DNA from: Yuukianura sp. NJ FZ-2021
Taxonomy: Eukaryota
NCBI GenBank assembly: GCA_046563655.1
Contig: CM102287.1
Coordinates: 5,952,001 to 6,016,000 of the forward strand
Direction of reading: 5' to 3'
DNA: 64,000 nt
This document shows, one piece after another, positions 5,588 to 63,920 of this stretch. Each line of letters starts with the position of its first letter. Position 1 is the first letter of the stretch. Below the pieces are notes generated by a model. That model ran no database searches, was not told where the DNA came from, and was given only the letters and a program-made list of their open reading frames with translations. The position numbers and the translations under genes were made by a program.

Positions 5588-6154
5588 ATGGCTTCGTTTA
5601 TTTTGTCGCTTCTTGTGCTTATATGTCTGAGTCAATACGGTGAATCCTGCAACGCCAACGGTGGCAATAGTAAGCTTTTCTGATAAATAAAAGGCTGTGA
5701 CAAATTTTTTCAAAAAAATAATGCAGCTAATTAACAACGTAACTTATAGTTACTTTCTTAATCCAAAAATTGAATTATTGAAAGCACTTATAAAATTACT
5801 TTAAAAACTATATTTTTTGCGTTGCACTGTACAGAGTTTATTCCAATTGGACCTAAGTTGCCTAACTACCCGGCGTGTACTAAATGGCAGTGTCCACCGC
5901 CAGGGGGATGTACTACTTGTGTCCTATGTGATGCCGCAGTTACAACAACACCTGTCGATATCTGTGTCGACGCCACGCCTACTGCGACGGTAAAGGCCAA
6001 TGGAGCACCATGCAAAGCGACGGCCGCTGATCCCGACTGTTGTGGTGTCTTCCCTGCACCGTATCCTTGCACCACCAAAGCTCCGGTTTGTGTCATGGTT
6101 GCTGCTGATCCAGCCGCCGTGCCTCCAGTTTTGGGTAGTAAACCATGTCCATAG
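5588..6154 (+). CDS. Small secreted Cys/Pro-rich protein, copy 1, 133 aa (exons 5588-5669, 5835-6154)
   Basis: Signal peptide MASFILSLLVLICLSQYGES, phase-1 intron, CTKWQCPPPGGC motif. Paralogous to 8765-9351. Confidence 0.85.
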
Positions 6155-8764: not shown

Positions 8765-9351
8765 ATGGCTTCGTATATCCTGTCCATTTTTGTTCTCATT
8801 TGTCTTAGCCGATACGGCCAATCCTGCAACGGTGGCAATAGTAAGTTTTCCCATTATGTAAGGAAACCTAAAATGGAATAATTCTTATATTACCTGAATA
8901 AAACAATTCTAAATACTCAAATCAAAGACAAAAGTCAAAAACAAAATTATTCATTTAGGTTAAGGCCAAGTATTGGAAGAGGGAAATTGCCATAATTCTA
9001 ATTCTTTTTATTAATCTGTAATTAACAGTAGCCGTCAAGTTTCCCATTAAAATTTCTGGTAATACTCAGCCGGTCGACTACCCACCATGTACAAGATGGC
9101 AGTGCCCACCCCCAGGGGGATGCAGTACTTGTACACATTGCAATCCTACAATTACGAGGACGTCACTCAACATCTGTGTCGACATATTTGCTTCTCCGAC
9201 TGCGACGTCCAATGGAGCACCGTGCCGAGGATCAGGCGAACCCGACTGTTGCCGAGACTTCTCGGCAGACTTTCCGTGCACCGAGAAAGCACCGGATTGC
9301 GTCACTTCCATTGCACCATATTATTATTCATTCCAGAATGCGTGTCCCCTA
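8765..9351 (+). CDS. Small secreted Cys/Pro-rich protein, copy 3, 132 aa (exons 8765-8840, 9029-9351)
   Basis: Signal peptide MASYILSIFVLICLSRYGQS. Same intron position and 13-Cys pattern as copy 1. Confidence 0.85.
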
Positions 9352-9752
9352 AATCCCTAGGTTCATCAATGCAACTGTTTTTTTCTTTAAAATGACTTGT
9401 ATAAAATGATTGAATTATAATAAATTTGTCTTATTGTGTAAAACTACAGAAATATCAAAGACATCATCCGTTCTGAATCGAATTTTATTCCGAAATTTTT
9501 TTCAAGTTTCAATAAAATTATTTTGGCAGAAAAAAAAACGATACGAAGTTACCCAGAAGATGAAGAAGCTTCTGCGTTACGTGGAGTGAAAGTGCGCATG
9601 GACACACTGCTCTGATTGGTTCTTCCGCTTGGCGCTTCTAAATCCAATTGGTTAATTTTGCAACACGGTAGAAGAAAAATGGGTGCAACGATTGCTGAAA
9701 AATGAACAAACAAAAACTTTTTATTGCATGAGTACTTGAGTATATTGTATTT

Positions 9753-12585
9753 TTACAATTCAGTTGTAGCAGTAGTGGTAGTAAGTGTAAGTGTTTTGGA
9801 ATCGCCTGCTTTTGAACTTGTAAGTGGAGTGTCGACGGCAATATTTTGTTGTGGGTTTGAATTGAGACTGCGCTTGTGTGAATTTGACTTGCCTCTGAGC
9901 GTCGAGTTTTTGCGACTCAAGTGAATCATGACCGATTTTTTGCAAACGAAGATGAGGAAGATGAGGATTCCTTGGACGATGTTGAAAAAGTCGGTGACCA
10001 TCCACTGGTAGCCAGGCGGTCGATAGATAGTGCAATTTTGTGCATCTCTTTCAGTCCGACCGTAGTCACTAAGGTACTCAATTACCTAAATTCCAAGAAA
10101 ATTCAGATTTTGAATTGGGTGAAAATATTTTCCTTTGTTTTTGTACCTCGACTGTCCAGGTGACGCCCATAACAATGAACAGTTTCGTGAACAAGTACAG
10201 GGTTTGCTTCTGCTTGGCAGCATTTTTGCGCGCCTTCTTGGTATTCTGATGGTACTGGAACATAATCCACATGGTTGTAAGGAAGAACAGAAGATTCGCA
10301 AGTAGTAGCAGAGCAACTGGTAGGAAGATGTAAACGCCCTGAGCAGTTCTGTTGGCAATGTAGCAATTGTCGACACCATACTCCGGAAGCACGATTCCTA
10401 CAGGACGCTTATGTTTCGGCAAACTAGAAAAATACAGAAAAGTTTTGAAGAAGTGAAATGAGAAAAAATAGGAATACACTAGACCAACACCACTTGTAAC
10501 CACTACCACCGTACTTATAAAATACTCAAAAACTACAATACCAAAATTGGTTATATTATCCGTTTTTTTTGTGTTAAAAAGTTTGAACAAGTGAAACTTA
10601 CTGCAAATAACTTCTGTCCAGAATGTATCCCACCAGAACAATTATGAATGGTAGGCCAAGGGAGAATGCGAGGTACATTCGAAATCTCACGATCCCTTTG
10701 GATTTTCCGATAGATGGTGCCAGTGTTCTGTGTGATTTAAATTAATGTTTTGAAAAATTACTTTTTTGTTTAAACTATACTCTCACCTAAATGTCCACCA
10801 CAAGTCAAACGAGAGACCTGCGTGTAAATTTTTAAAATTATTATTTTGGAAATAGAGGAATAATATTGTAGCATAGTTAATGTTAATTACATGTTAAAAG
10901 GCTGAATGTTGACAGGAAAAGAAAGTGAGCGGAAAGTCCTGAAATTTAAATTAACATAACGTAAAACATAATTGCTAACTTAAAAATATTGTATTCCATT
11001 TTGTATTCCCTTATATGTGCAGCTTTCATTAGCCCGGGGACAAACTTCGTACCTACGAAAATACAACGGCTTGAACCTGCGACTGTTTCACGTCCCTGTG
11101 TCATCACAATTAATCGAGCAGAACCAAGGAAAAACTGAAAACATATTGTCGAGGTCAAAGGTCAGCTTGACAATTCTCGGTTACGCCAGGCCAGGGTAGG
11201 TACTTATTTACTATTATTGTTTGTACCAGCATGAGTCCCATGGACACAGACAAGGAGAAGACGGTCCACCCGTGAATGTTCTGTTTGTCCCAAATAAGAA
11301 TGTAGACGATCACAGTAAGACAGAGGAAGAAGGCGGAAATGAACATCACAACGACGTATACCACGTCAATTCTACTTTTTTCCTACAAATAGTTCCATTC
11401 CACCACAATCAAAAAATTTTGGAAAAAAAAAATACTTCGACAGAGAACTGAATAAGTTTCTGAAAAATTCCTGATCATACCTCCTGGTACGGGTCCTGGT
11501 CGTAGGATTCACAAGTACAGACCATGGCAGCATGAAGCTTCACTTCCGTGTTTTCTTCTTCACTGTACAGTGCATCGATACAATAATCAGTTCTGGGCCA
11601 AGTCAACCCACTGTATACGTGTAAAGAGCCCTTTTTTGTAAATGCAAAACTGAAAACACCAAAAAACGTCAAAACTGACCCAGAAAATTTTTCAAAAAAG
11701 ATGTTGTGACGTACGGCATATCGTCGTAGGCTACTCGATCTAAACTGAAATTCTCTGCGCAGTCTTGAAACGTATTTTGGTAATGAAATACATCTTCCGG
11801 GAGTCCTTTATGGACGCAGTCAGGGCCTTCGTCACGTGACTGCAAGCACCGATTAGGATTGGTGGAATGATACAACGGTGGATCCCATTTGACTGCAGAT
11901 TCCTTCGGTGGACCACAGGTCACGTTACTATCGTTAAGGAAGTGTAGCACTTTGCCCCAACCGCAACATTTTGGGACACAAATTTTGTTACTGCGTGGAT
12001 CTGTACAGTTGATCTCACAAATACTGACGACGGCTTCAGTGAGACTCAAACTAATTTTTAAATTAATAAATTAGACAATTTCAGAATATTTTTAACAATT
12101 AACTTGCTTTGGCGGGAAAAAGTTTGTAGTTTGGCGTTTCAAAAAAATACAAATCGAAAGTTATGTTTTAACCTCTGTAGACAGTATTCATTTTTCCAGT
12201 AGTTCCCAATGTCGTACTTCAAAATTCCGTTAGACTCAAATGTTGCTTTCACACCCTCCTCTTCCTCATCGTTTAAAGCAAATGGCAGCGATACATTGTG
12301 TACAATCGAGGCACACGTCAGACTCTGCTCAAACAGCCTGAAAGTGCAAGTCCAAGCTTAAAAACGCAGCTACAAACATAGTTTCTTTAGTCATGTGCGC
12401 AGTTACCGAAACATTGTTGTATCTCCACTGGACATCAGAGTAGATGGGATCTCGATTTGTGCTGACTCAAAGTTTGTGGATCCCTGGCAAACAGGGAGCG
12501 ACTCCAAGCGTTGATTCGTCAGAGCTTGACTAGTCGAAGACGCTGACAAAGTTAAAATTAAAAATACACCCAAAGAGAAGGCCAT
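9753..12585 (-). CDS. Methuselah-like GPCR 1 (multi-exon; an extra 3' exon near 9550-9640 is possible)
   Basis: Signal peptide, Mth ectodomain motifs CVPKCC and DYCID, 7TM motifs QNIHGW, YGVDNCYI, KLFIVMGVTW, QGILIFLIFVCKK. Confidence 0.88.
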
Positions 12586-13177
12586 GTTGAACAAATTTGA
12601 ACAGATTTTCAAATTTTGATTAACTGCTGGAACGAGAAACAAGTTTTTGGGGATCACTCGCTTCGAAAGAAAAAAAGTTCTGAGGAAGTAAACTTGGAAT
12701 TGAATAAATGAAATAAATTTTCCAGAGGAAGCTAAAAAGTACTTCGCAATTAACTTCCTCATGCGGGTGAAAAACCTTGAAGAGACTTTAGAAGAATTCA
12801 TTAAGGTCGAATTGCTGTCAGTTTGGTTTTAAGCTGGAGGAAAACCACAAGTATTATTAATAATAACCAAAACAATTTACAGTTTCTTCGGAACAAATTT
12901 CAAATTTTATTTCGCACTTATACAACAATTTCGCTAATTAAATCAATTTGACAAAATTAAAACTTAAAAACTGATGAAATTTTGAAGCAGATCGAAACAA
13001 AGCCTGAATATGTTTGTCAATTCACTTTGTTTCGATTTTCACCATTACTACTGGTATTTTTTTGTGATCCGCAGATTAGCTTAGGAAAAAACGTCTTTTT
13101 TTTCTTTTTGAAAACGTTTTGTATGAGCCTGTTTTTACTGACAATTAAGGTAGTTTACTTTATGCTTTCAATTGACT

Positions 13178-14896
13178 TTATTTAATTCCCTGTGCTGCAA
13201 CTCTTTCAACCAAGTCGGCGGCTCGTGATTGGCTGTTTGATGACTGGATTCGTTTGGAAATACTGCGCATTCGTCTTTCTAGCATGTCATCTGCTAACAT
13301 TTTCTCGATTGTTGTTAACAGTTCCTCCTCGGTTACCGTGTAGGGGTAACACCGTCTACCATGTCCAGTCTCTTCTATCCGTTGTCCGTTGTCCAGTTGA
13401 TCCCATAGCAAAGGCAGAACCAAAACCCGCTTTCCGAAGTAGAATGACTCTGTGATTGTATTGTTTCCGCCATGCGTGATCACCAAATCCACCAGAGGCA
13501 GCACTTTCGTCTGCGGAACACTGCGTTCTCCCCACATGTTGTCAGCCAATTCAAATTCATCAGCACGCGGACCTAAAATTTCACAAAAAAAGCATCACGA
13601 ATTTGAAAATTTTGAAGATGTCGCTGCGTTTTCTTGCAAATTGTGTCACCTTTCGAGACGATGAATCTGTTTGGTGACTTGGCCAGAATTGAAATAAGTC
13701 TCTTCATTAGATCGACATCTACACATCCGATTGTACCCATTGAAAAATAAATCAGCTTTCCTTTTCCTCCGGCCAATTTCGACGGTATTTCAAAATCTCC
13801 TTCGCCATTTCTAACAAAAGTGTCGAATTGGTACCAGTTAGGTGGATTTGGTCGGAATGACGTGTAGTCCAATTCGAGAGGGTACATGTAGATGTTAGCC
13901 CACGGGGAATATTTGACCCAGAATGGGTACTGGATTGACATCTTCGGACCGCCATTGTTCACAACCCATTCGGTATAATCATCATAGAGATCTTTGTACA
14001 CACGCGCAACTTCGTCTCTAAAGTCCTTCCACAACTGACGGTCGCCATCCGTCGGATATCCCGAAAATGCTGGAGGCACGTTGACATCAGAGATGCCAAG
14101 CGGGTTGCAGGAGCAGGATAGAATATATGGCGTCCCTGTGTTAAGTTATTTCAAGGTTTGTTGACTAATTTTCTTTAGCAGGTTGGGTAATACCTCATGT
14201 TTTTTGATTTTTAAAAAAGTAACCTTACATTTCAGGGCATCTTAGTCATAACAATACAGCCGAATTTTTTAAATTTTACATACGAATTGGTACCATTTTT
14301 TGGAATGGTACTAAAATTGGTACCAATAATTATTGTTTTTGTTGTTTTTTTTGTCAACAAGCTAGGTAGTACGCAACCTGTTAAAGAAAATTCGCTTTTC
14401 GTTGTCAAGGAACCTTGGGTTTTGTTAAAGTTCATTATATTGCTCATGTTCCTTCTTAAATAGTTAAAGATTGGCACTTACCTTGATTCATAAATGATGG
14501 CAGTTGCGCCATATAGTCGATTACCAGGACGTCTGGTTTTACATTTTTCATGATTTCGCGGAATCTCGGCTCTTGGTGCTGTACTTGAACAAAGAACTCC
14601 TTATGCATTTCAAAATGCACTTTTGACTGGTGTTCAATGGACGGGAGCGGAATGGCTTGCATCGTTTTTGCAAGCATTTTAGCCCAGGGGTCGCCATCGG
14701 TTTCCAAGCTATGTTCAGTAACTGTGTACAATTCTTCGATGAATCCTAGGGCTTCGAGCCGACCTTTCCATGTGTTAGGAGTTGCAAAAACAACCTTGTG
14801 ACCTCTATCTCTCAACTGCTCTGCAATGCCAAGACATGCATTGACGTGACCCACTGCGTCAATCACGACAAAAAGAATAGTATACTTGGGAGCCAT
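13178..14896 (-). CDS. Cytosolic GT1 UDP-glycosyltransferase of the bacterial MGT/spider-mite type, 431 aa, 3 exons (14896-14482, 14135-13650, 13572-13178)
   Basis: GHVNA catalytic motif, RGHKVVF, GKLIYFSMGT and UGT signature VPQ...ITHGGNNTITES...PLLWDQ. No signal peptide and no C-terminal TM. Confidence 0.92.
14152..14417. mobile_element. CAAGG-terminated MITE family copy in UGT intron 1
   Basis: Termini caagg...ccttg. Subterminal inverted repeat ttcttta(g/a)caggttg shared with 18957-19184. Confidence 0.65.
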
Positions 14897-15005
14897 TTGA
14901 CCTTGACGATTTTGACCTTTCCTCTGCCTGTGCTCTACTGATGACCGTAGCTATTTAATGAAAATTACATTGATTCTTGCACGATATAAGTAGAGAAACG
15001 TTGAG

Positions 15006-15666
15006 CGTAGCAACCGATAATCGCCGAACCAAAAACCGCCGCTCCAATAACCGCCGCTCAATAATCGCCGAAAAAATAACCGCCGCTAGGCAAAAACCGC
15101 CGCCAGGAAAAATCGCCGCTACAATAACCGCCGCCACCCAAAAACCGCCGCCATTCAGAAACCGCCGCCACACAGAAAGGGTTCAATTCCAATTGGTTCG
15201 AAGGACCAGTTGGTTCAATGCCGATTAGTTTGACACAAAATTGTTTTATTTTCCCGCGGCGAAGGCGCGGTGTTAGGTTTGGTAAAAACCCGCAATGCTG
15301 ACGTCTGTAGGTTCTGTTTGGTTAAAATAGTTGGCGTGTTGCTATTGATGTTGGTGGGTGCAAATGTACCGGTCCGATGGGTACAATTGGTGGGTTCAAT
15401 TCCATCATCGGCACAAAAATTTGGACTGGTGGGTACTGTCTGGTCGCCCAAGATTACTTCGACCGATTTTTCAATGTGTGAATCCTGGCGGCGATTTTTC
15501 ATGGCGGCGGTTTTTGCCTAGCGGCGATTATTGTAGCGGCGGTTCTGCCTAGCGGCGGTTTTCGCCTAGCGGCGGTTTTTGCATGGCGGCGGTTATTTTT
15601 TCGGCGATTATTGAGCGGCGGTTATTGGAGCGGCGGTTTTTGGTTCGGCGGTTATGACATGGAACC
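15006..15666. mobile_element. Foldback/Mutator-like non-autonomous element with arms of (a/t)aaccgccg subrepeats
   Basis: Long inverted arms. 8-bp direct repeat acgttgag at 14998-15005 and 15667-15674 (TSD). Confidence 0.8.
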
Positions 15667-16068
15667 ACGTTGAGATATTAAACTTAAGCGAAAGCAAAGA
15701 GCAAAGAATTTAACACTTGAAATTAATCTATGAAGTACGTCGAAGGGCATCTCAAGCCACGAGGTTGAAGTGGTAGCCAAATTCTTCCACTCTTGTTAAC
15801 TCTAGCTGAAGAAAGTTACATTAAAACTACAATTCTGTACAACTATAGAACTACACTGCAACAATTCTACAAAATATTACAATTTTAAGAAATCGCCGCA
15901 AAAATTCAAAGTATTCAAAATTTTGAACTTTGCGTTGAACATCCCTTGGAATGCAATAGAATTTCGGTTTCTGTTTTAGGTCTTGGTCTTCGCTTTTTAG
16001 TACTAAAGTACATTGATGCTTCTGGAAAATTAAAAGTTCCATATTTTAAAAACTATTTAAAGTAAAAT

Positions 16069-18413
16069 TTACAATTTTAGTCGCTTACTTTTGACTGTTG
16101 GGTATCTCTGTTCTAAATTTCCCCAAGTTTGTTTTCGACAAACAAACACAATGAAGATGGCCAAACTTTGTGTAAAGTTCAGAAGGTCAATGAGGATCCA
16201 GTAGGCAATGGTTGTATCCCAACGAAAATTCCAAGCAATGAATTCTGTCATCCACAGAGACGATGACATCAGCAGAAGACTTGTGTAGATTCGAATTCTA
16301 AAAAGAAAGTTTGTTACAATTAAAAAAATTCACAAAATGTTGCAAATTTCTGCCAATCGTACAATCTCCACTGTAAATTGTTTTTTGAGTTTCCAGTTTT
16401 AAGTTGAGTAGTCAGTTCTTGGTAGAGCGAAATTCTGAAAATTGTGAACAGGAAAATGGATGCATTGAAAATGACGAGAATTCCGATGGGGTAGAACAAA
16501 TAAAAGCCTTCCGATCGTCTCGAAATCAAACAACGCCCAATGCCATATCCTGGACCAAACAAGTAAGGACTGGGTGCCATTCTAATACAAAATACGACCA
16601 TTCTAAAACTTTTTAAAAAACGAAACACTAATGTTATTTCCTCTTTATAGACGAATTTGTAGGTGTACCTGTTGACGCAATCTAAAATTAACCCGATGGA
16701 GACAACTACAACTGGAAACCCCCAAGCAGCAATTGAAAATTTCAGAAACCGCTTGAATCCGTGCCGTTGGATGGACAAAGAAGCGGAACTGATCAACGTT
16801 CTAAAAATTAAAAAACGTTAAAAACTTCAACAAGTTTCTTAAAGCACAAAAGTTGTTTCAAGAAGACAGCGTTAGTATATACCTGAATGTGACCCAAATG
16901 TTGAGATTAAGGAACGTGAGCCAGATAAATGTAGAGAGAATGAAGAGATGCGTTGCCGCACCGATGATAACGCAACTGATATTTCCCTGTACTGTGTCGT
17001 TGGTAGATGGCGACAGTTGACTCAGAATATTTGAAGTGCCGAAAAGCATGTTGAGCAGTAGGATGGAAATGATGTAGGAAGCGACCACCCACATGTGGAA
17101 CTTCTGCTTGTTTCTAAGCAGGAAATATACGAGGAGAGTCACGCCGAGTAGAGCGCATGAGCAGAACATCACAACGCCATATACAATTGGAATTGCTATC
17201 TGGACCTAAAATTTAAAATGTTAACACTTTCAAATCATTTTAGAACTACATTTTATAAACAATGTCTCACAACAGTTCTGGTTGATCGGTCGTTTTCGGA
17301 CGAATTTTGAGATTTCCGAAGTTCATTCGGACAAAATCGGACGACTTGGTCCCACAAGCTACCAGTGTAGAAAACATTCATTCCATAGTTTTGAACACCA
17401 TCAATGCAGAAGTTGGACTCGAGTAAGTTCCATTTGGAATCATTAAAAAACACAACAGAACTGTTTGACAAAAACCGAAATCTGAAAAAATATTACACAT
17501 ATTTTTTAAACTTTCATAATGTTGTTCATACATAGATTTAAAAAATTGAACTTACTGCATGTTTTGAAATCCGAAGCCAGTGAGGTTCCTCAGTGACCAT
17601 GTTACGATCTCCTTTTCAGAACAATTCAGACTGCGAAGTTCGAATTTGAAATTGAAACTGGTTGAATTTGCAACACGGACTGGCGTCTGTCCTGGCATAA
17701 CTAAAAGCTTTCCTGACCGCATGCGCAGTGTTCTTCCAGACGCCATTTGCGTATCCGCTTTATATAAAATCGGAGTCCAAGGGAGATCCGAGAATTGACA
17801 AGAGCCTGATTTACTGAATCCATCAATGACCTTATCCAATTCACAACACTTTGGAACACATACTGTGTCAAGGTCATCCCCACAGGGATGTCCACACAAC
17901 TCAAGTGTAACTCCATCTGAAGTAATTCTGCAAAACATTATTCTTTTCGAGTATTTCATTTAGTTTGAATTTTTTCAACAAAAAAAGCAAAACAAAAATT
18001 TTGAACAATTCCGAAATAACTTGCTTTTGAATACAGTAGTCGGTTACTGCATAATAAGAATTCCGCACGAGCAGATGCCCGTCTTTCAGAAAAAGTCCTG
18101 CGTCTCTCGAATTCCCACTGCTGCGACCCTCCGTCGTCACCAACTCCATTGTTTGCTTGTGTTTGCATTTGAGCGGCTCCACATTCAAACTAAAACAGTT
18201 CAAAATTTTCTAAAAAGAAAAGTTTGCAATTTGGAAAATCAAAATGAGATTTTCATACCCAAAACTAAGGGACCTTGAAGATGCTGATAGAATCGCTGGA
18301 AGCGATACTTTGACGCTCTCAAGATCCGAACAAGTATTGAGACTCACTTGCATTTCTGCATTACAGATTAAAAGACAAACAACGCCAAGTATTTCTCTTA
18401 CGTATTTAAGCAT
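16069..18413 (-). CDS. Methuselah-like GPCR 2 (last exon probably extends toward ~15720)
   Basis: Signal-like N-terminus, DYCIQ, CVPKCC, NFCIDG, and 7TM exons with AWGFP, YGIGRCLI, QSLAIFIVFVCRK. Confidence 0.85.
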
Positions 18414-18726
18414 TTCCGACTGTAAATTTTGTCTCGAAATCAAACTCAAGCTGAAAGTTTATTTTGATTTTTGGAATTTCTTTAACAGTACAAGTTGTAA
18501 TGCTGTGTCTCTTAAGTTCCTACCTGGCTGTATCCGTTCTAGGTTGCATTGTGTGACACATACCTCTACAGCTATCATCACATCCGTTGTGAACCGCAAC
18601 CAAAATCCCGCTAAACTCACTCACCATTTCCGCTCATAGACTTCCCAGTTAAATATTAAATCTGACATGGCTGGGACGGGTTAAACTGTATTACACTGAT
18701 TAATTAATTATATTTAAAACTAGCGC

Positions 18727-21700
18727 CTAAAATTTTGTTGACTTCTGTCCAAGCAGTGGAGTTGCACTTTTTGGAGGTGTGGTCAAGCTCCTGTTTGAAG
18801 ATTCTGCTTTGGTAGACTTGGTTGTGCCGCTGGGACAGTGGGTGAGGGCGTATGGACGTCCAGGGTCATTTTCTGAAAATAAAATTAGGTAATTGAGGTG
18901 TATTTAGTAGTTTTATTCGGTATAACCTATTAGCTACAATCCAATAATGTAAACACCAAGGTTCCTTGGCAACGAAAAGTTAATCTTCTTTAACAGGTTG
19001 GGTACTACCTCGCTTGTTCACAGAAAAACGAAAGACAAAACAAAAATTCGCTACCAATTCGTATGCAAAATTTGAAACATTCGACTGTATTTGCCCTGAC
19101 ATAAAAAAAAACACTTTTTGCAAAATCAAAAGGACATGTGGTATTACCCAACCTGTTAAAGAAAATCAAACTCAACAAGTCTTGGTAAACACTGCCAAAA
19201 TATACTCTTTTAGTGAGTCTAATAATTCGGTATGTAAACCAAATGTAAGTTGAAACTTGTATAACTGCTTATTGAAAATGCATTGTGTTGAGTGTATGGA
19301 TTGATATGTTTGACCATTCTTTGTTTACATAACTACTTATTTCCAAAAATTACCTGAATCTACTGTGAGAACAGTTGCATTTCTGGCACCACAGGCTTTT
19401 GATGAGAAGCATGGGATGAAGCCGGAAAGGTTTAGACAAGTATCTGAAATTAAAAAACAATTGAAATTTAAAATTAATATTTGAAAATAGTAATTTTAAA
19501 CAAGGATTTCTTTTCTCAATTTCACCATCAAGCCATGGAAATTTGGAGCGTAGGGAGTTGAGAATGTCCCTTTTGCAAACAAAGAAGATGAAGATGATGA
19601 TGCCCTGTGAATGATTCATGAGATCAATCACCATCCAGTACCAGGGAACATAGTTACTTCCAACATCTCCTGGACTTGCCAACGCAGGAGCAGCAGAAAT
19701 CACCTTTTCGTGAAATTATACAATTCAAGTTCAAAATTTTCAAAAAAGCAAAAGCAAAACAATGCTTTGTATGAAAATACCTCAAAGACCCATGGGATGC
19801 CCATGACACAGATGAGTTTAGCGATGAGTGTCACCCTGAAATGACCAGAGACAATAAAATTGAGCGGCATGAGCCGCTGACCTCGACTGACCTCATCAGT
19901 TTGTAATCCGGCACAAACTACATACGATTGTCTCCGATTTGGCGAATTCTTCATCCCTGTCGGCGTACTCCTCCTAGCAAGCTTTGTTCCTTCATTTGCT
20001 TCCTTTAGAGCACAAACTGTGCTAACGAAAAAGAAGATGTTGACGAGAAGAAACGCCGTCTGGGGGCCAACAACATAGGGCAGTCGAGCCTGTGGGTTGC
20101 TGATGTAGCACTTTCGTTTAGCATAGTCTGGTACAATCAAAGTACGCTCGTAAGGCATGGCTTCCCTAAACAACAAATAGGCTACGTTAGGTTATGTTAC
20201 GAAATTGAAAGGGTTAACTTTTGCTGAAGTTAGGCCTAAACTAACGAACACTCAAAAATTCGCGCAAGTGCAATATTGCCTATTTTATGAAAATGCTTGC
20301 CCAAAGATGAGATCAAGCGACAATGCAACGGAGACGATAAGCGACGGTAATCCAACTGCAAAAGCAAGGTATTTCAAGTAGTGCTTCACTCCTCTCCCGG
20401 ACGTCAAACTGGATTTCAACGTTCTAAAAATTGTTTGAAAAATTTTCGTTGAACAATATTAAAAAGTTGACATAAGAAACATTTTTACTCCTAAAAAAGG
20501 CAAAATGCTAACCTGAACGTACACCATAGGTCAAAATTTACTGAAAAACAGAAGAAATATTTTCAATCCACAAAGTTTTGTAGGGTAGTTTGGAGATTTT
20601 GTGCGACTTTTACCGATGGTCATCCAAGCGAATGCATGTAAAAGTGCGAAATGTGCGAAAACTGCGAAAAAGGTGCACTTGAAGGATATGCGCATATTGT
20701 TGCCTTCGAATGTACTGACTTCAGACAAGATGAAAACAGATACATAACCCAGTTGCATGAGGAACAGCGCCACGAAGTATGAAAGAAGGCTGAAACCATG
20801 GATCGTATGCTTCTCCCACAGTAGAACGTAGATGATAATGGTCAGGAAGAGGAAAAAGGCGGACACTAGCATCAACGAGTAGTACCACTTAGACAGAGTG
20901 TACTAAACATAAATTATTTAATACAACATTATACACATTTATTATATTAAACATTATATTTGCAACTTTCTTACGTCTGCTCCTGCAGAGACCTCGTCCC
21001 TTGGAAAACAGTTCAGAATGACCGTATCATTTTCAAACCCGGAAAATTGCCCGTCGTGGTCTGCTGTTCCGTCAATACAAAATTTTCCGCGAAGTTTGCG
21101 CCAATACAGATTCATTCCTCGGTACATCACTTCCCCATTCGTTAGAAGTCGAAAACTTCAGAATTTAAAACACATTTTGAAAATACTGAGAAGTTTTAAA
21201 AATTGATTTTTTTTAACTTCCTTACTCAACCTTGAGCGGTCCCTTGTACGTGTAGAGCGCGATACGGTGACACTCTGACATATTCCACTCTCCTACAACT
21301 TCCAACCGAATGTGAACCGGGTAATTTGCATCTCCATGTCCAATCTGAGTGTCCAGGTTGTGGTACACTATTGGCCGCCATGTTGATGTTCCCTTTACGG
21401 CAACACAGTTTTGATGCACAGTTCCGTTCGGCAGGGTCTTGATATCAAGTACTTCGTTGAGTAAACAACATTTTGGAATGCATGCCATCCGCTCTGTACA
21501 CGTCGGTTTGCAAATCCGGATTTTCAGACTCTCTTCATTCGTAGGTGGCCTAACACAAAAAGTTTCGAAAATTGCCTAAATTTTATGAAGATTTTGTCTC
21601 CGAGTATTGCGCTAATCGCTTTCTTTTTCTTTTTCTTTTTTTTTTTTTTAGAGATTTAAGTAACGTAGGCATTAAAAATTTCGAAAACTTATACAAGTTT

Positions 21701-46176: not shown

Positions 46177-49100
46177 TTATTCTATAAAGAGTTCAATGTA
46201 ACGACTTCCCATCATCTCCCTGTGCTTGTGCAAGGCTTCGTTCTGATCCTGGGGACTTGCAAAGAAGGCTCGCGCAGAACCTGACAAAAATGTCCAAAAA
46301 TTATTAGTCTGGCTTTAAAATACTTAGTAAGTACAGTCCGCTTATTGTCACCAAAGTGACAAGCAAAAATGTCGCTCCACAGCGACACCCCTGAATTCTT
46401 GATCTAAAAATCTGAGCGTCCATGCCAGCTTCGGCTGAAGGGTTTCGCACCTTTTGGTGGCTGTAGGTGACATTTCCTCGCAAAATGTCGCCAGTACGCT
46501 GCGACATTCAGGAAAATCCTATATTTTGGGAACAATACGAGGTCACTGACCCCTCTATGGCTGTTGTGACCCCAGTATGCCCCCCATTTTTTTTTGTAAT
46601 TTTGGTAGGAGGGTGTCATAAAGTAAAGTTAGCAACAAAGTAAACGTAGTAATGGCCGCCGCCGCCATCTTGGATTCTGCGAAGAGTCCCCTGAGCCGGA
46701 TTTCCTTGGAATTTTTTTACAGTTCCTTGGAAATTCTATCGAATGGTGACATGTGGTGAGTGGGGGGGAACTATCCACAACAATGGCCGCGGCGGCCATC
46801 TTGGATTCCGCGAAGAGTCCCCTGGGCTGGATTTCCTTGGAATTTTTTCACAATTCCTTGGAAATACTGTCCAATGGTGACATGTGGTGAGTTGGGGGTA
46901 CTCCTGGCTCCAGCAATGGCCGCAGCCGCCATCTTGGATTTGCCGAAGACTCTCTTGGGCTGGATTTCCTTGGAATTTTTCCACAATTCCTTGGAGACAT
47001 TGTCGAATGGTGACATGCGGTGAGTTAGGGACAGAACTGACCCCAGTAATGGCCGCCGTCGCCATCTTGGATTTTGCGAAGAGTCATTTTTTGCATGATT
47101 TTCCTGGAATTTTTTTAAGCTACTTGAAGATGTATCTGAATACACACATAAGCTATGCTTGCAAGCAAATAGGTGCGGTAATATGGCCTCTGCTGCCATC
47201 TTTGAAGAAATTGAAACTTTACGTTTTCGGTTTACCAATATTCAAAATGGCGAGGAGTTGACTCACCACATGTACTTCCACCATATTTGGAAGTATTTCC
47301 AAGGAATTCGAAAAAACTGGCGAAGAGTCCACCCCAATGGACTCTTCGGCAAATCCAAGATGGCGGCCGCGGCCATTGTTCGGGTCAGTTGTTTCCCCAA
47401 CTCACCGCGTGTCACCATTTGACAGTATTTCCAAGGAACTGTGAAAAAATTCCAAGGAAATCCAGCCCGAGAGAGTCTTCGGTAAATCCAAGATGGCGGC
47501 CGCGGCCATTGTTGTGGACAGTTGCACCCCCAACTCATCACATGCCATCACTCGACAGTGTCTCCAAGGAATTGTAAAAAAATTCCAAGGAAATCCAGCC
47601 CGAGAGAGTCTTCGGTAAATCCAAGATGGCGGCCGCGGCCATTGTTGTGGACAGTTGCACCCCCAACTCATCACATGCCATCACTCGACAGTGTCTCCAA
47701 GGAATTGTAAAAAAATTCCAAGGAAATCCTGCCCAAGGGACTCTTCGCCAAATCCAAGATGGCGGCCGACGACCATTACCTTACGTTTTATGTCGCCCGT
47801 CTTACCTATTGATGCATTTCGATCACATCTCCAAGGAATTTCAAAATAATTCCAAAAAAAATTGGCACTGGATGGTCTCCGCAGAATCCAAGATGGCGGC
47901 GGTCACCGTCGGGCGACATTGTCGGACTCCTACACTGACGTTGTACCTTCTGGCTATCAATTTGGAATGGCAATTCGACAAATTCTTAGGAGAACTTGGC
48001 CCTAAGTGGTCTCCGCCATGTTTCAAGATGGCGGCGGTGACATTAGGGTGGCGGAATACATGTCGTTCAGCGACAAAAAGTGTTTCCCAAATTTAGGAAT
48101 TTTTTTGGGTGGCAATGGTTTAGCTGTCATAGCGGCATAAACGATTTTTTATCAGAAAGACAGTGTTGTCACTTTGGTGACGTTAAAAGACGGCACGTTA
48201 TTCCTGAACATACAGGGGCTCAAGTGTTAGTTGATTATTCTTGATAACTGCCGTTGCATTAAAAACTTGGAAAATATCTAACCCGAAGGTCTGTTGGTTT
48301 CATCAAATATGATTTGGACTCCTCTCGTGTGCAACGGAGAAAAGAAACTCCGGATGTCGCCCTCAGTTGCAGACCATGGTAGCCCACGCATGAGAACAGC
48401 ATAGTCTCCCCCACCACCGCCACCAGCGGAAGGCCCCATCATTCTCTGACTCCCTTTGAGGCCTGAAAAGAATAAAGCGACATTCACATTAACTTGTTTT
48501 AACTTGGAGACAAACCATGCACTCATCTATCAAGTTCAACGACTAAAAAAATTACCGGGCAGGAGTGGCCGTGGACCTGGTTTCAGTGACTGTGAACTTC
48601 CACCAGTGCCGATATCCCATGAATTCTCAACTCTGTTTGCGTAGTCACTCCAAGTACTTTGATTTCCGCCAGAAGAATGGCCGTAACCTGCAACAAAAAA
48701 TTATAACACTGTACACGAGCATTGAAACGAGATTGGTTGGATATTTTTTACACACCTCCACCCCCTCCACCATTACCGTTGCTCCCCATGTTGCTTCTAC
48801 CGCCGAAGTAGCGATTTGGGCCGGCTCCTCCTGATCTTTGATTTCCCATCTGCATCTGATATCTGCCCGTAGCGGGTCGTTGCTCTCGATTTGGTGGACG
48901 ATCATATGGAGTTGGTCTGTTTCCATACGAGTACTGCCGATTGTTACGCTGACCCATGCCGCTGTTCATCGAATTCCTTAGCTCCGTATTGGTCACACGG
49001 AATATTTCAACATATCTAGAAGTTCAGAGAAAAAGTATTTAGAAACTCACAAGTTGGCGACAAATAGTAAGTCCCCCCTCCCAGTCCCAGTTCCCACCCA

Positions 49101-54892: not shown

Positions 54893-63920
<9,028 letters not shown>

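Follow-up and report, generated by a model that had tools for sequence, protein, structure and literature searches.

The 64,000-nt stretch of DNA analysed here (hereafter the window) carries, among animal genes and on its minus strand, a three-exon gene for a UDP-glycosyltransferase (UGT) of glycosyltransferase family 1 (GT1). Adaptive horizontal transfer has a textbook example in the soluble bacterial-type UGTs of spider mites, which act on plant toxins and acaricides. We consider it highly probable that the window gene is a host-integrated, apparently functional soluble GT1 gene of actinobacterial-type descent, similar to the macrolide glycosyltransferases (MGT-like), and that it belongs to the arthropod family of bacterial-type UGTs, where it forms part of a separate clade that has conserved introns of its own and is carried by a springtail-like hexapod.

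The gene is interrupted by two GT-AG introns, both in phase 1 and both within a glycine codon (Table 1). Exon 1 encodes the N-terminal Rossmann-like domain, with the catalytic His17 (in GHVNACLG) and Asp127 (in VIDYM); exon 2 covers the last part of this acceptor domain, then the linker, and leads into the C-terminal domain; and exon 3 encodes the UDP-sugar-binding C-terminal domain with its ITHGGNNT...DQ signature. The spliced product has 431 residues and begins MAPKYTILFVVIDAVGHVNACLG. Residues 1-431 align end to end with uninterrupted relatives of 433-450 aa, both exon joints sit in unbroken alignment with these relatives, the three full-length closest relatives all begin no more than one residue from the first methionine (M1), and there is an in-frame stop 18 codons upstream of the ATG; because of this, the gene model is complete. 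The original prediction, which had described a complete 431-aa GT1 enzyme with two GT-AG introns amid animal genes, was reproduced in its coordinates and in its model, and all six motifs that it had listed (GHVNACLG, NPLGISDVNVPP, IYMYPLELDY, GKLIYFSMG, SPNRFIVSKGP and DNMWG) are present in the spliced protein, SPNRFIVSKGP straddling the joint between exons 2 and 3. No second copy of the gene occurs in the window.

The same prediction held that the enzyme has neither a signal peptide nor a transmembrane anchor, and it named an upstream signal-peptide exon as a finding that would speak against it. Such an exon is neither required nor seen, judging from the upstream frame and from the alignment of the relatives' starts. 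A hydropathy scan revealed no hydrophobic stretch at the C-terminus, the last 40 residues being hydrophilic, and the sole stretch exceeding a Kyte-Doolittle value of 1.6 was residues 7-25 (1.98), which align to the first strand (beta-1) and the catalytic-His loop of the crystallised spider-mite enzyme TuUGT203A2. The scan and this alignment uphold the claim, and the protein is predicted to be free of both signal peptide and membrane anchor.

Table 1. Coordinates of the UGT gene and of other features of the window (aa, amino acids; GPCR, G protein-coupled receptor; MITE, miniature inverted-repeat transposable element; ORF, open reading frame)
Feature	Position	Strand	Description
UGT exon 1	14896-14482	minus	codons 1-138 and first base of codon 139; ATG at 14896
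UGT intron 1	14481-14136	minus	346 nt; GTAAGT...ACACAG; phase 1, within Gly codon 139
UGT exon 2	14135-13650	minus	remainder of codon 139 to first base of codon 301
UGT intron 2	13649-13573	minus	77 nt; GTGACA...TTTTAG; phase 1, within Gly codon 301
UGT exon 3	13572-13178	minus	remainder of codon 301 to codon 431; stop at 13178-13180
High-copy repeat	~14165-14420		within UGT intron 1; 29-nt inverted ends at 14167-14195 and 14364-14392
MITE-like element	15001-15669		669 nt; terminal inverted repeats of 96 nt, 94% complementary; AACCGCCGC-type sub-repeats
7tm_2 GPCR paralogues, three in tandem	9753-12070, 16320-17959, 19350-21575	minus	UGT lies between the first and the second
POLR3B exon	55723-57168		482 aa
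Cysteine-rich ORF	5774-6154	plus	shares a motif with the next ORF
Cysteine-rich ORF	9022-9360	plus	shares a motif with the preceding ORF
Repeat block	46736-48096	both	overlapping long open frames with repeated peptide units

Protein family, with predicted fold and catalysis

When the exons were scanned separately, exon 3 alone matched the Pfam UDPGT model (PF00201) with 39.7 bits against a cut-off of 19.5, the match covering just 84 C-terminal residues. Exon 1 matched the Pfam Glyco_transf_28 N-terminal domain at 1e-4, under the cut-off, and exon 2 alone had no Pfam or NCBIfam match. The nearest curated NCBIfam model was TIGR01426 (MGT), against which exon 1 scored 32.9 bits (3.5e-8) and exon 3 76 bits (2.7e-21), without reaching the cut-off of 260. 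With this model the full-length relatives P0004, P0292 and P0007, which belong with the window gene to one clade (the window clade, see below), scored about 101-105 bits, mite UGTs scored 112-116 bits, and the nearest bacterial protein measured (P0204) scored 125.6 bits. Because none of them reaches 260 bits, the window clade, the mite enzymes and P0204 would all be classed as MGT-like yet outside the curated macrolide-glycosyltransferase subfamily. The database names "MGT family" and "YjiC-like" attached to P0204, P0318 and P0035 overstate membership (112-126 bits vs 260).

A profile built from the window exons and their nearest relatives was used to search the PDB. It matched spider-mite UGT203A2 (7lvy) at 1.6e-110, with 373 bits over query positions 5-426 of the 432 profile positions, and spider-mite UGT202A2 (6pnt) at 8.7e-89 over its full length. 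Bacillus YjiC (8.7e-23, in the C-terminal part) and the C-terminal domains of human UGT2B (~5e-11) gave partial matches. These structural hits, together with an exon 2 search in which all 24 organism-named matches were acariform mites (see below), bear out the proposal that this is a bacterial MGT-like UGT of the mite type. From the full-length match to the solved TuUGT structures, the protein probably adopts a GT-B fold with two Rossmann-like domains, and it appears to be a bacterial MGT-like GT1 enzyme, not a canonical animal UGT anchored in the endoplasmic reticulum (ER).

The UDP-sugar signature ITHGGNNTITESFYFGKRVLVLPLLWDQ lies at residues 332-359, where it was located with the regular expression ..THGG..T..E......P....P...DQ, which we take to be the PROSITE pattern. 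His17 and Asp127 align to His25 and Asp140, which a passage of PMC10731231 gives as the catalytic dyad of TuUGT202A2. Because the His-Asp dyad matches that of TuUGT202A2 and the ITHGG...DQ motif is intact, an inverting GT-B mechanism is likely. In such a mechanism His17, polarised by Asp127, would deprotonate the hydroxyl of a small lipophilic acceptor, and the hydroxyl would then attack C1 of the UDP-sugar. By analogy, the C-terminal ITHGG...DQ motif most likely holds UDP-glucose as the donor, and the product would be a more soluble glycoside made in the cytosol, a phase II reaction in which xenobiotics or endogenous compounds are conjugated. That the donor is UDP-glucose and that the acceptors are small and lipophilic is suggested by the mite enzymes of the same family, which according to a passage of PMC10731231 glucosylate flavonoids and 1-naphthol, and by the report that pyrene is converted in springtails to glucosides, not glucuronides (PMC2688526). 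A cytosolic location and a role in detoxification would both be in keeping with this.

Relatives, shared introns and phylogeny

When exon 2 was used as the query, 60 of 188 candidates were significant. An organism name was attached to 24 of these 60, and all 24 were from acariform mites (Oppia 13, Oppiella 3, Medioppia 3, Tetranychus 3, Panonychus 1, Brevipalpus 1), with no insect or vertebrate UGT among them. The closest relatives of the UGT were JGI metagenome proteins, 53-57% identical to it at full length and, in the case of fragments, up to 67%, followed by one NCBI protein (44%), oribatid mite proteins (41-44%), probable bacterial proteins (39-42%) and T. urticae proteins (32-37%). An exhaustive search of representative sequences returned 424 clusters at E <= 1e-30, and outside the cluster of P0007 the best identity to the UGT was 44%; the 50% clusters of the gene contained no NCBI-named protein. 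Look-up of the clusters of 30 proteins yielded Medioppia, Oppiella, Oppia, Blomia, Dermatophagoides, the rotifer Adineta steineri and Limnocylindrales. Among the looked-up relatives was DERF_011775 of D. farinae, which to judge from the matching name is apparently the representative gene of Xiong et al. A profile search with 16 sequences was dominated by freshwater actinobacterial proteins, springtails being absent among the matches listed, and a search of the ESM Atlas with P0007 returned bacterial MGT-type clusters only. The GTDB species genomes contain at least 599 stretches that code for relatives of the UGT. The best 80 of these came overwhelmingly from Actinomycetota (Streptosporangiaceae, Mycolicibacterium, Nanopelagicales, Ilumatobacteraceae), with a few from Chloroflexota, Acidobacteriota and Verrucomicrobiota, and were 38-48% identical to P0004 in the best segment, mostly across nearly the whole length.

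A scan of JGI metagenomes with four full-length sequences revealed 32 loci, for which the nearest reference was the window clade in 15 cases, Nanopelagicales in 9, Oppiella (mite-like) in 5 and P0296 in 3; all 15 loci with the window clade as best reference are metagenomic. At the window-clade loci the tblastn alignments break at residues ~139 and ~301. When splice sites were searched for, Gly codon 139 proved to hold a GT..AG phase-1 intron at eight of nine loci tested (L101 failed, with a score of 6), as did Gly codon 301 at all six tested. Four relative copies read through codon 301 without a break, and L081 copy 2, L089, L104 and L112 gave single long high-scoring segment pairs. At the mite-like loci it is near residue 164 that the tblastn alignments break; L098 and L107 read through both 139 and 301, and L093 and L094 start at ~164. 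Because introns at codons 139 and 301 recur within the window clade and the mite-like loci differ, the clade appears to be a eukaryotic gene family that is old, has multiple copies (40-74% identity) and possesses introns of its own. The JGI proteins nearest to the window gene lie on contigs of 1.4-1.6 kb, too short for introns at codons 139 and 301, and these intron-less contigs would fit processed transcripts. Multiple copies were seen at several loci, with two on the same strand at L081, two on opposite strands at L106, and two to three at L098 and L107; metagenomic loci related to the window clade and those related to the mite-like clade alike include tandem arrays, an arrangement also reported for mite UGTs.

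Two trees were constructed, a quick tree of 97 rows and a careful tree of 65 rows (LG+G4; support given as ultrafast bootstrap/SH-aLRT), and the two agree. The 65-row tree included 25 bacterial rows, for which 23 of the 80 listed GTDB loci were used; left out were tandem-fusion proteins, fragments shorter than 400 aa and the majority of the 80 bacterial loci. In this tree the 25 bacteria were split from the 40 other rows with support of 100/99, and an arthropod-type group of 39 rows stood apart from the bacteria and the rotifer (100/97). The window gene formed a clade with the JGI proteins P0004, P0007, P0009 and P0292 (100/99), the position of which within the arthropod-type group was weakly resolved (54-82). 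The 20 named mite rows fell on one side of a branch that had the window clade, the bacteria and the rotifer on the other (88/97), placing the window clade outside the acariform radiation rather than nested in it. Because it lies inside the arthropod-type group but outside the named mite rows, the window gene appears to be a separate lineage, beside the mites, within a family known from mites. A phylogeny with bacterial and mite sequences had been proposed as a check on the original prediction, and the placement with arthropod-type UGTs, apart from bacteria, agrees with it. The protein of the bdelloid rotifer Adineta steineri (P0327) branched apart from the arthropod-type group, next to the bacteria (100/97).

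Host and genomic integration

The identity of the host was addressed using the POLR3B exon in the window. The encoded sequence was most similar to those of the springtails Orchesella dallaii (71% identity), Folsomia candida (71%) and O. cincta (70%), followed by a barnacle (68%), insects (66-68%) and a tick (63%), with no acariform mite among the matches listed; for scale, Folsomia and Orchesella are 81-82% identical. In a tree of 26 rows and five exon blocks, in which Protura and Diplura were not included, the window and three Collembola formed a four-row clade (SH-aLRT of 100), the window having a long branch (0.45). Because POLR3B groups with Collembola, the host appears to be a springtail-like hexapod, i.e., a fast-evolving springtail or a close entognathan relative, and not an acariform mite. 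The suggestion of an acquired detoxification enzyme had been made for the case that the host is a hexapod, with POLR3B as the means of finding out, and the tree points the same way.

The UGT gene is flanked on both sides by same-strand paralogues encoding 7tm_2 GPCRs, and the other genes of the window are ELO, a tyrosine phosphatase, C2H2 zinc fingers, GT92, AFG1, DeoC, BTB/Kelch and POLR3B. Its composition is host-like: the coding sequence has a GC content of 0.459 and a GC content at third codon positions (GC3) of 0.477, compared with a GC3 of 0.40-0.56 in host exons, and the cosine of codon use between the UGT and host exons is 0.935. GC3 was 0.88-0.97 in four of the five bacterial homologues measured. 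We also placed contigs assembled from the reads of four runs on positions 10500-18000 of the window. One run, X5, comes from another study, bears another organism code and is ~9% diverged. An X5 contig of 3919 nt spans 11050-13508, extending from the adjacent gene as far as UGT exon 3 and so linking the UGT to an animal gene, and a second X5 contig covers 13550-14197. There was no X5 cover at 14516-15017 (exon 1), which we did not take as absence.

Origin of the gene

For the bacterial origin of the spider-mite UGTs, a passage of PMC4943190 cites Ahn et al. (2014). Xiong et al. (2022; PMC9113151) extend this origin to all Acariformes, state that the UGT and chitinase 2 have springtail (Folsomia) homologues, and report that springtail UGTs cluster with those of Acariformes, rotifers and bacteria. 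Luan et al. (2022; PMC10087712) describe Folsomia UGT clades as of "independent origin" relative to Drosophila. We found no paper dedicated to bacterial-type UGTs of springtails, only passing statements in PMC9113151 and PMC10087712. Because the 2022 paper had already noted springtail homologues, in the passage just cited, a bacterial-type UGT in springtails is no new category, and the novelty implied by the original prediction falls away to that extent. What is new is the separate window clade, with conserved introns that set it apart from mite-like genes and with, apparently, no representative among the named springtail proteins of NCBI. The analysis places the same UGT family in a springtail-like hexapod, as a diversified clade with introns that stands beside the mite radiation, and the members of this clade would be candidate enzymes for the glucoside conjugation known from springtail ecotoxicology.

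The window enzyme resembles the Tetranychus UGT201-207 enzymes (TuUGT203A2, 7lvy; TuUGT202A2, 6pnt/8gkn) in being collinear with them over the full length of ~430 aa, in the lack of a signal peptide and transmembrane anchor that is common to acariform UGTs, in its His-Asp dyad and UDP-sugar motif, and in its membership of the arthropod-type group. It differs in its springtail-like hexapod host, in its identity of 32-44% to mite proteins, and in its introns at codons 139 and 301, unlike the ~164 break of mite-like loci. It also resembles the Folsomia homologues described in a passage of PMC9113151, as a bacterial-type UGT in Collembola, the likeness being one of description. Actinobacterial MGT-like GT1 proteins (Streptosporangiaceae, Nanopelagicales, Mycolicibacterium, Ilumatobacteraceae) are 39-42% identical to it, of equal length and endowed with the same motifs, but their genes have no introns and mostly a GC3 of 0.88-0.97. 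With the canonical metazoan UGTs (insect UGT33/40, human UGT1/2) it shares GT1 membership, the UDP-sugar signature and a presumed phase II role. Those proteins carry a signal peptide at the N-terminus and are anchored in the membrane at the C-terminus, as a passage of PMC10731231 states, whereas the window UGT has neither, and the similarity is confined to the C-terminal domain. Adineta steineri P0327 is another case of an animal with a relative of the same bacterial group, but the rotifer gene stands apart from the arthropod group and its product is 35% identical to the window protein. The branching of P0327 between the bacteria and the arthropod-type group is consistent with a separate rotifer transfer, which is cited in a passage of PMC9113151.

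The ancestor would have been an actinobacterial-type, MGT-like glycosyltransferase of a bacterium, and the family is that of the arthropod bacterial-type UGTs, expanded in acariform mites (Tetranychus UGT201-207 and the UGTs of oribatid and astigmatid mites). Vertical descent with massive loss seems unlikely. The trees favour a common origin of the window clade with the mite genes, because the arthropod sequences are monophyletic with respect to the sampled bacteria, and since the introns differ, the two arthropod lineages would have separated before introns were gained. One reading of this, which we hold as a tentative possibility, is that a single transfer from a bacterium to an arthropod was followed by passage of the gene between soil microarthropods, in either direction between mites and springtails, and that the introns seen today were gained only afterwards. 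It is favoured by the support of 100/97 for the arthropod-type group against 25 bacteria (drawn from the best 80 of at least 599), by the lack of any sampled bacterium between the window clade and the mites, and by the fact that both hosts are soil animals, as is also argued in a passage of PMC9113151. However, the intron positions (139/301 vs ~164) provide no common eukaryotic hallmark, and P0296, P0297 and P0346, which lie near the base of the group where the backbone is weak (54-82), could be bacterial. A real possibility, if somewhat short of probable, is that springtail-like hexapods and acariform mites acquired the gene independently, from closely related soil bacteria (Actinomycetota-like) that are unsampled or extinct. 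The differing intron sets of the two clades would fit this, as would the position of the window clade outside the named mites (88/97), the similar identities of bacterial (39-42%) and mite (41-44%) sequences to the window protein, and the separate branching of Adineta P0327 by the bacteria, which indicates that genes of this type enter animals repeatedly. Against two acquisitions stand the monophyly of the arthropod sequences (100/97) and the absence from the tree of a bacterial lineage that is sister to either arthropod clade. We regard as doubtful the more specific proposal that one bacterial gene, which entered one soil microarthropod and passed between mites and springtails before introns were gained, gave rise both to the springtail-type clade and to the entire acariform UGT radiation, the window clade being its hexapod branch, apparently absent from the annotated NCBI springtail proteomes. 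If true, it would represent animal-to-animal transfer of a detoxification gene. In either event the window gene is a data point on whether soil microarthropods acquired this UGT gene independently or exchanged it.

Three further explanations concern the status of the gene itself. That it is a UGT of a bacterium or a mite co-assembled with the host might be entertained, since its nearest named relatives are all from mites, and oribatid mites and springtails share habitats; but it has two spliceosomal introns, sits between same-strand GPCR paralogues in a window whose POLR3B groups with Collembola, and is merely 41-44% identical to the best mite proteins. Because of the host-like GC and codon use, the animal neighbours and the contig from a second study that joins the neighbouring gene to exon 3, contamination or chimerism is very unlikely, and a co-assembled UGT seems to us hardly credible. 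It is just as exceedingly improbable that the gene encodes a canonical ER-type animal UGT that has lost its signal peptide and membrane anchor. Although the C-terminal domain matches Pfam UDPGT and, at ~5e-11, the C-terminal domain of human UGT2B, this similarity extends over ~85-140 C-terminal residues, against all 431 for the mite and bacterial relatives, and none of the 24 organism-named matches is canonical. A grouping inside canonical metazoan UGTs had been named by the original prediction as a refuting outcome; what speaks against it is confined to the matches of the exon 2 and PDB searches and to the 84-residue Pfam UDPGT match. That the gene looks intact but is in fact silent or decaying, as one among many paralogues and without present function, is a less far-fetched idea, given the transposon-like insertion ~105 nt upstream of the ATG, the high-copy repeat in intron 1 and the tandem occurrence of metagenomic relatives (L081, L106). 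We nevertheless think it improbable, with a 431-codon frame that is open, consensus splice sites, an intact catalytic dyad and UDP-sugar motif, and cover of exons 2 and 3 by contigs of the ~9%-diverged second organism.

Several points weigh against our preferred interpretation, that of a functional, host-integrated bacterial-type UGT in a springtail-like hexapod. Expression and splicing of the gene are predictions, the specificity for donor and acceptor is not readable from the sequence, and the MITE-like insertion could disturb the promoter. Residues 7-25 are above the classical hydropathy threshold, and their reading as beta-1 comes from alignment to a crystal structure, not from a signal-peptide predictor. 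The UGT trees did not include a canonical insect or other arthropod UGT. Neither the 24 named exon 2 matches nor the 30 proteins looked up yielded a relative named as a springtail protein, and the placement of the host depends on one gene with a long branch (0.45), in a tree without Protura and Diplura.

Other features of the window include repeats in and near the UGT gene. The 669-nt MITE-like insertion lies ~105 nt upstream of the UGT ATG. Since contigs from runs X1-X3 join position 15000 straight to 15670, corresponding to an insertion-free allele, the insertion is polymorphic; depth in X1 at 15018-15519 was ~11,600-19,100, vs a few hundred alongside. The repeat within intron 1 reached a summed contig depth of 32,000-66,000 in X1, vs a few hundred alongside, with many variant joints in the runs, and is probably another small transposon family. 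The tandem 7tm_2 copies are secretin-family receptors with a cysteine-rich N-terminal exon (..CVPKCC..) and are, we presume, reminiscent of Methuselah-like receptors. The two ORFs on the plus strand share a cysteine-rich motif (..T[KR]WQCPPPGGC[TS]TC..) and may encode paralogous small secreted proteins; the frame at 5774-6151, the only one of the pair scanned, had no Pfam match. Finally, the overlapping long open frames on both strands at 46736-48096 contain repeated peptide units (..SKMAAAAI.., ..FQGNPAQ..), and this region resembles a block of tandem or inverted repeats more than a gene.

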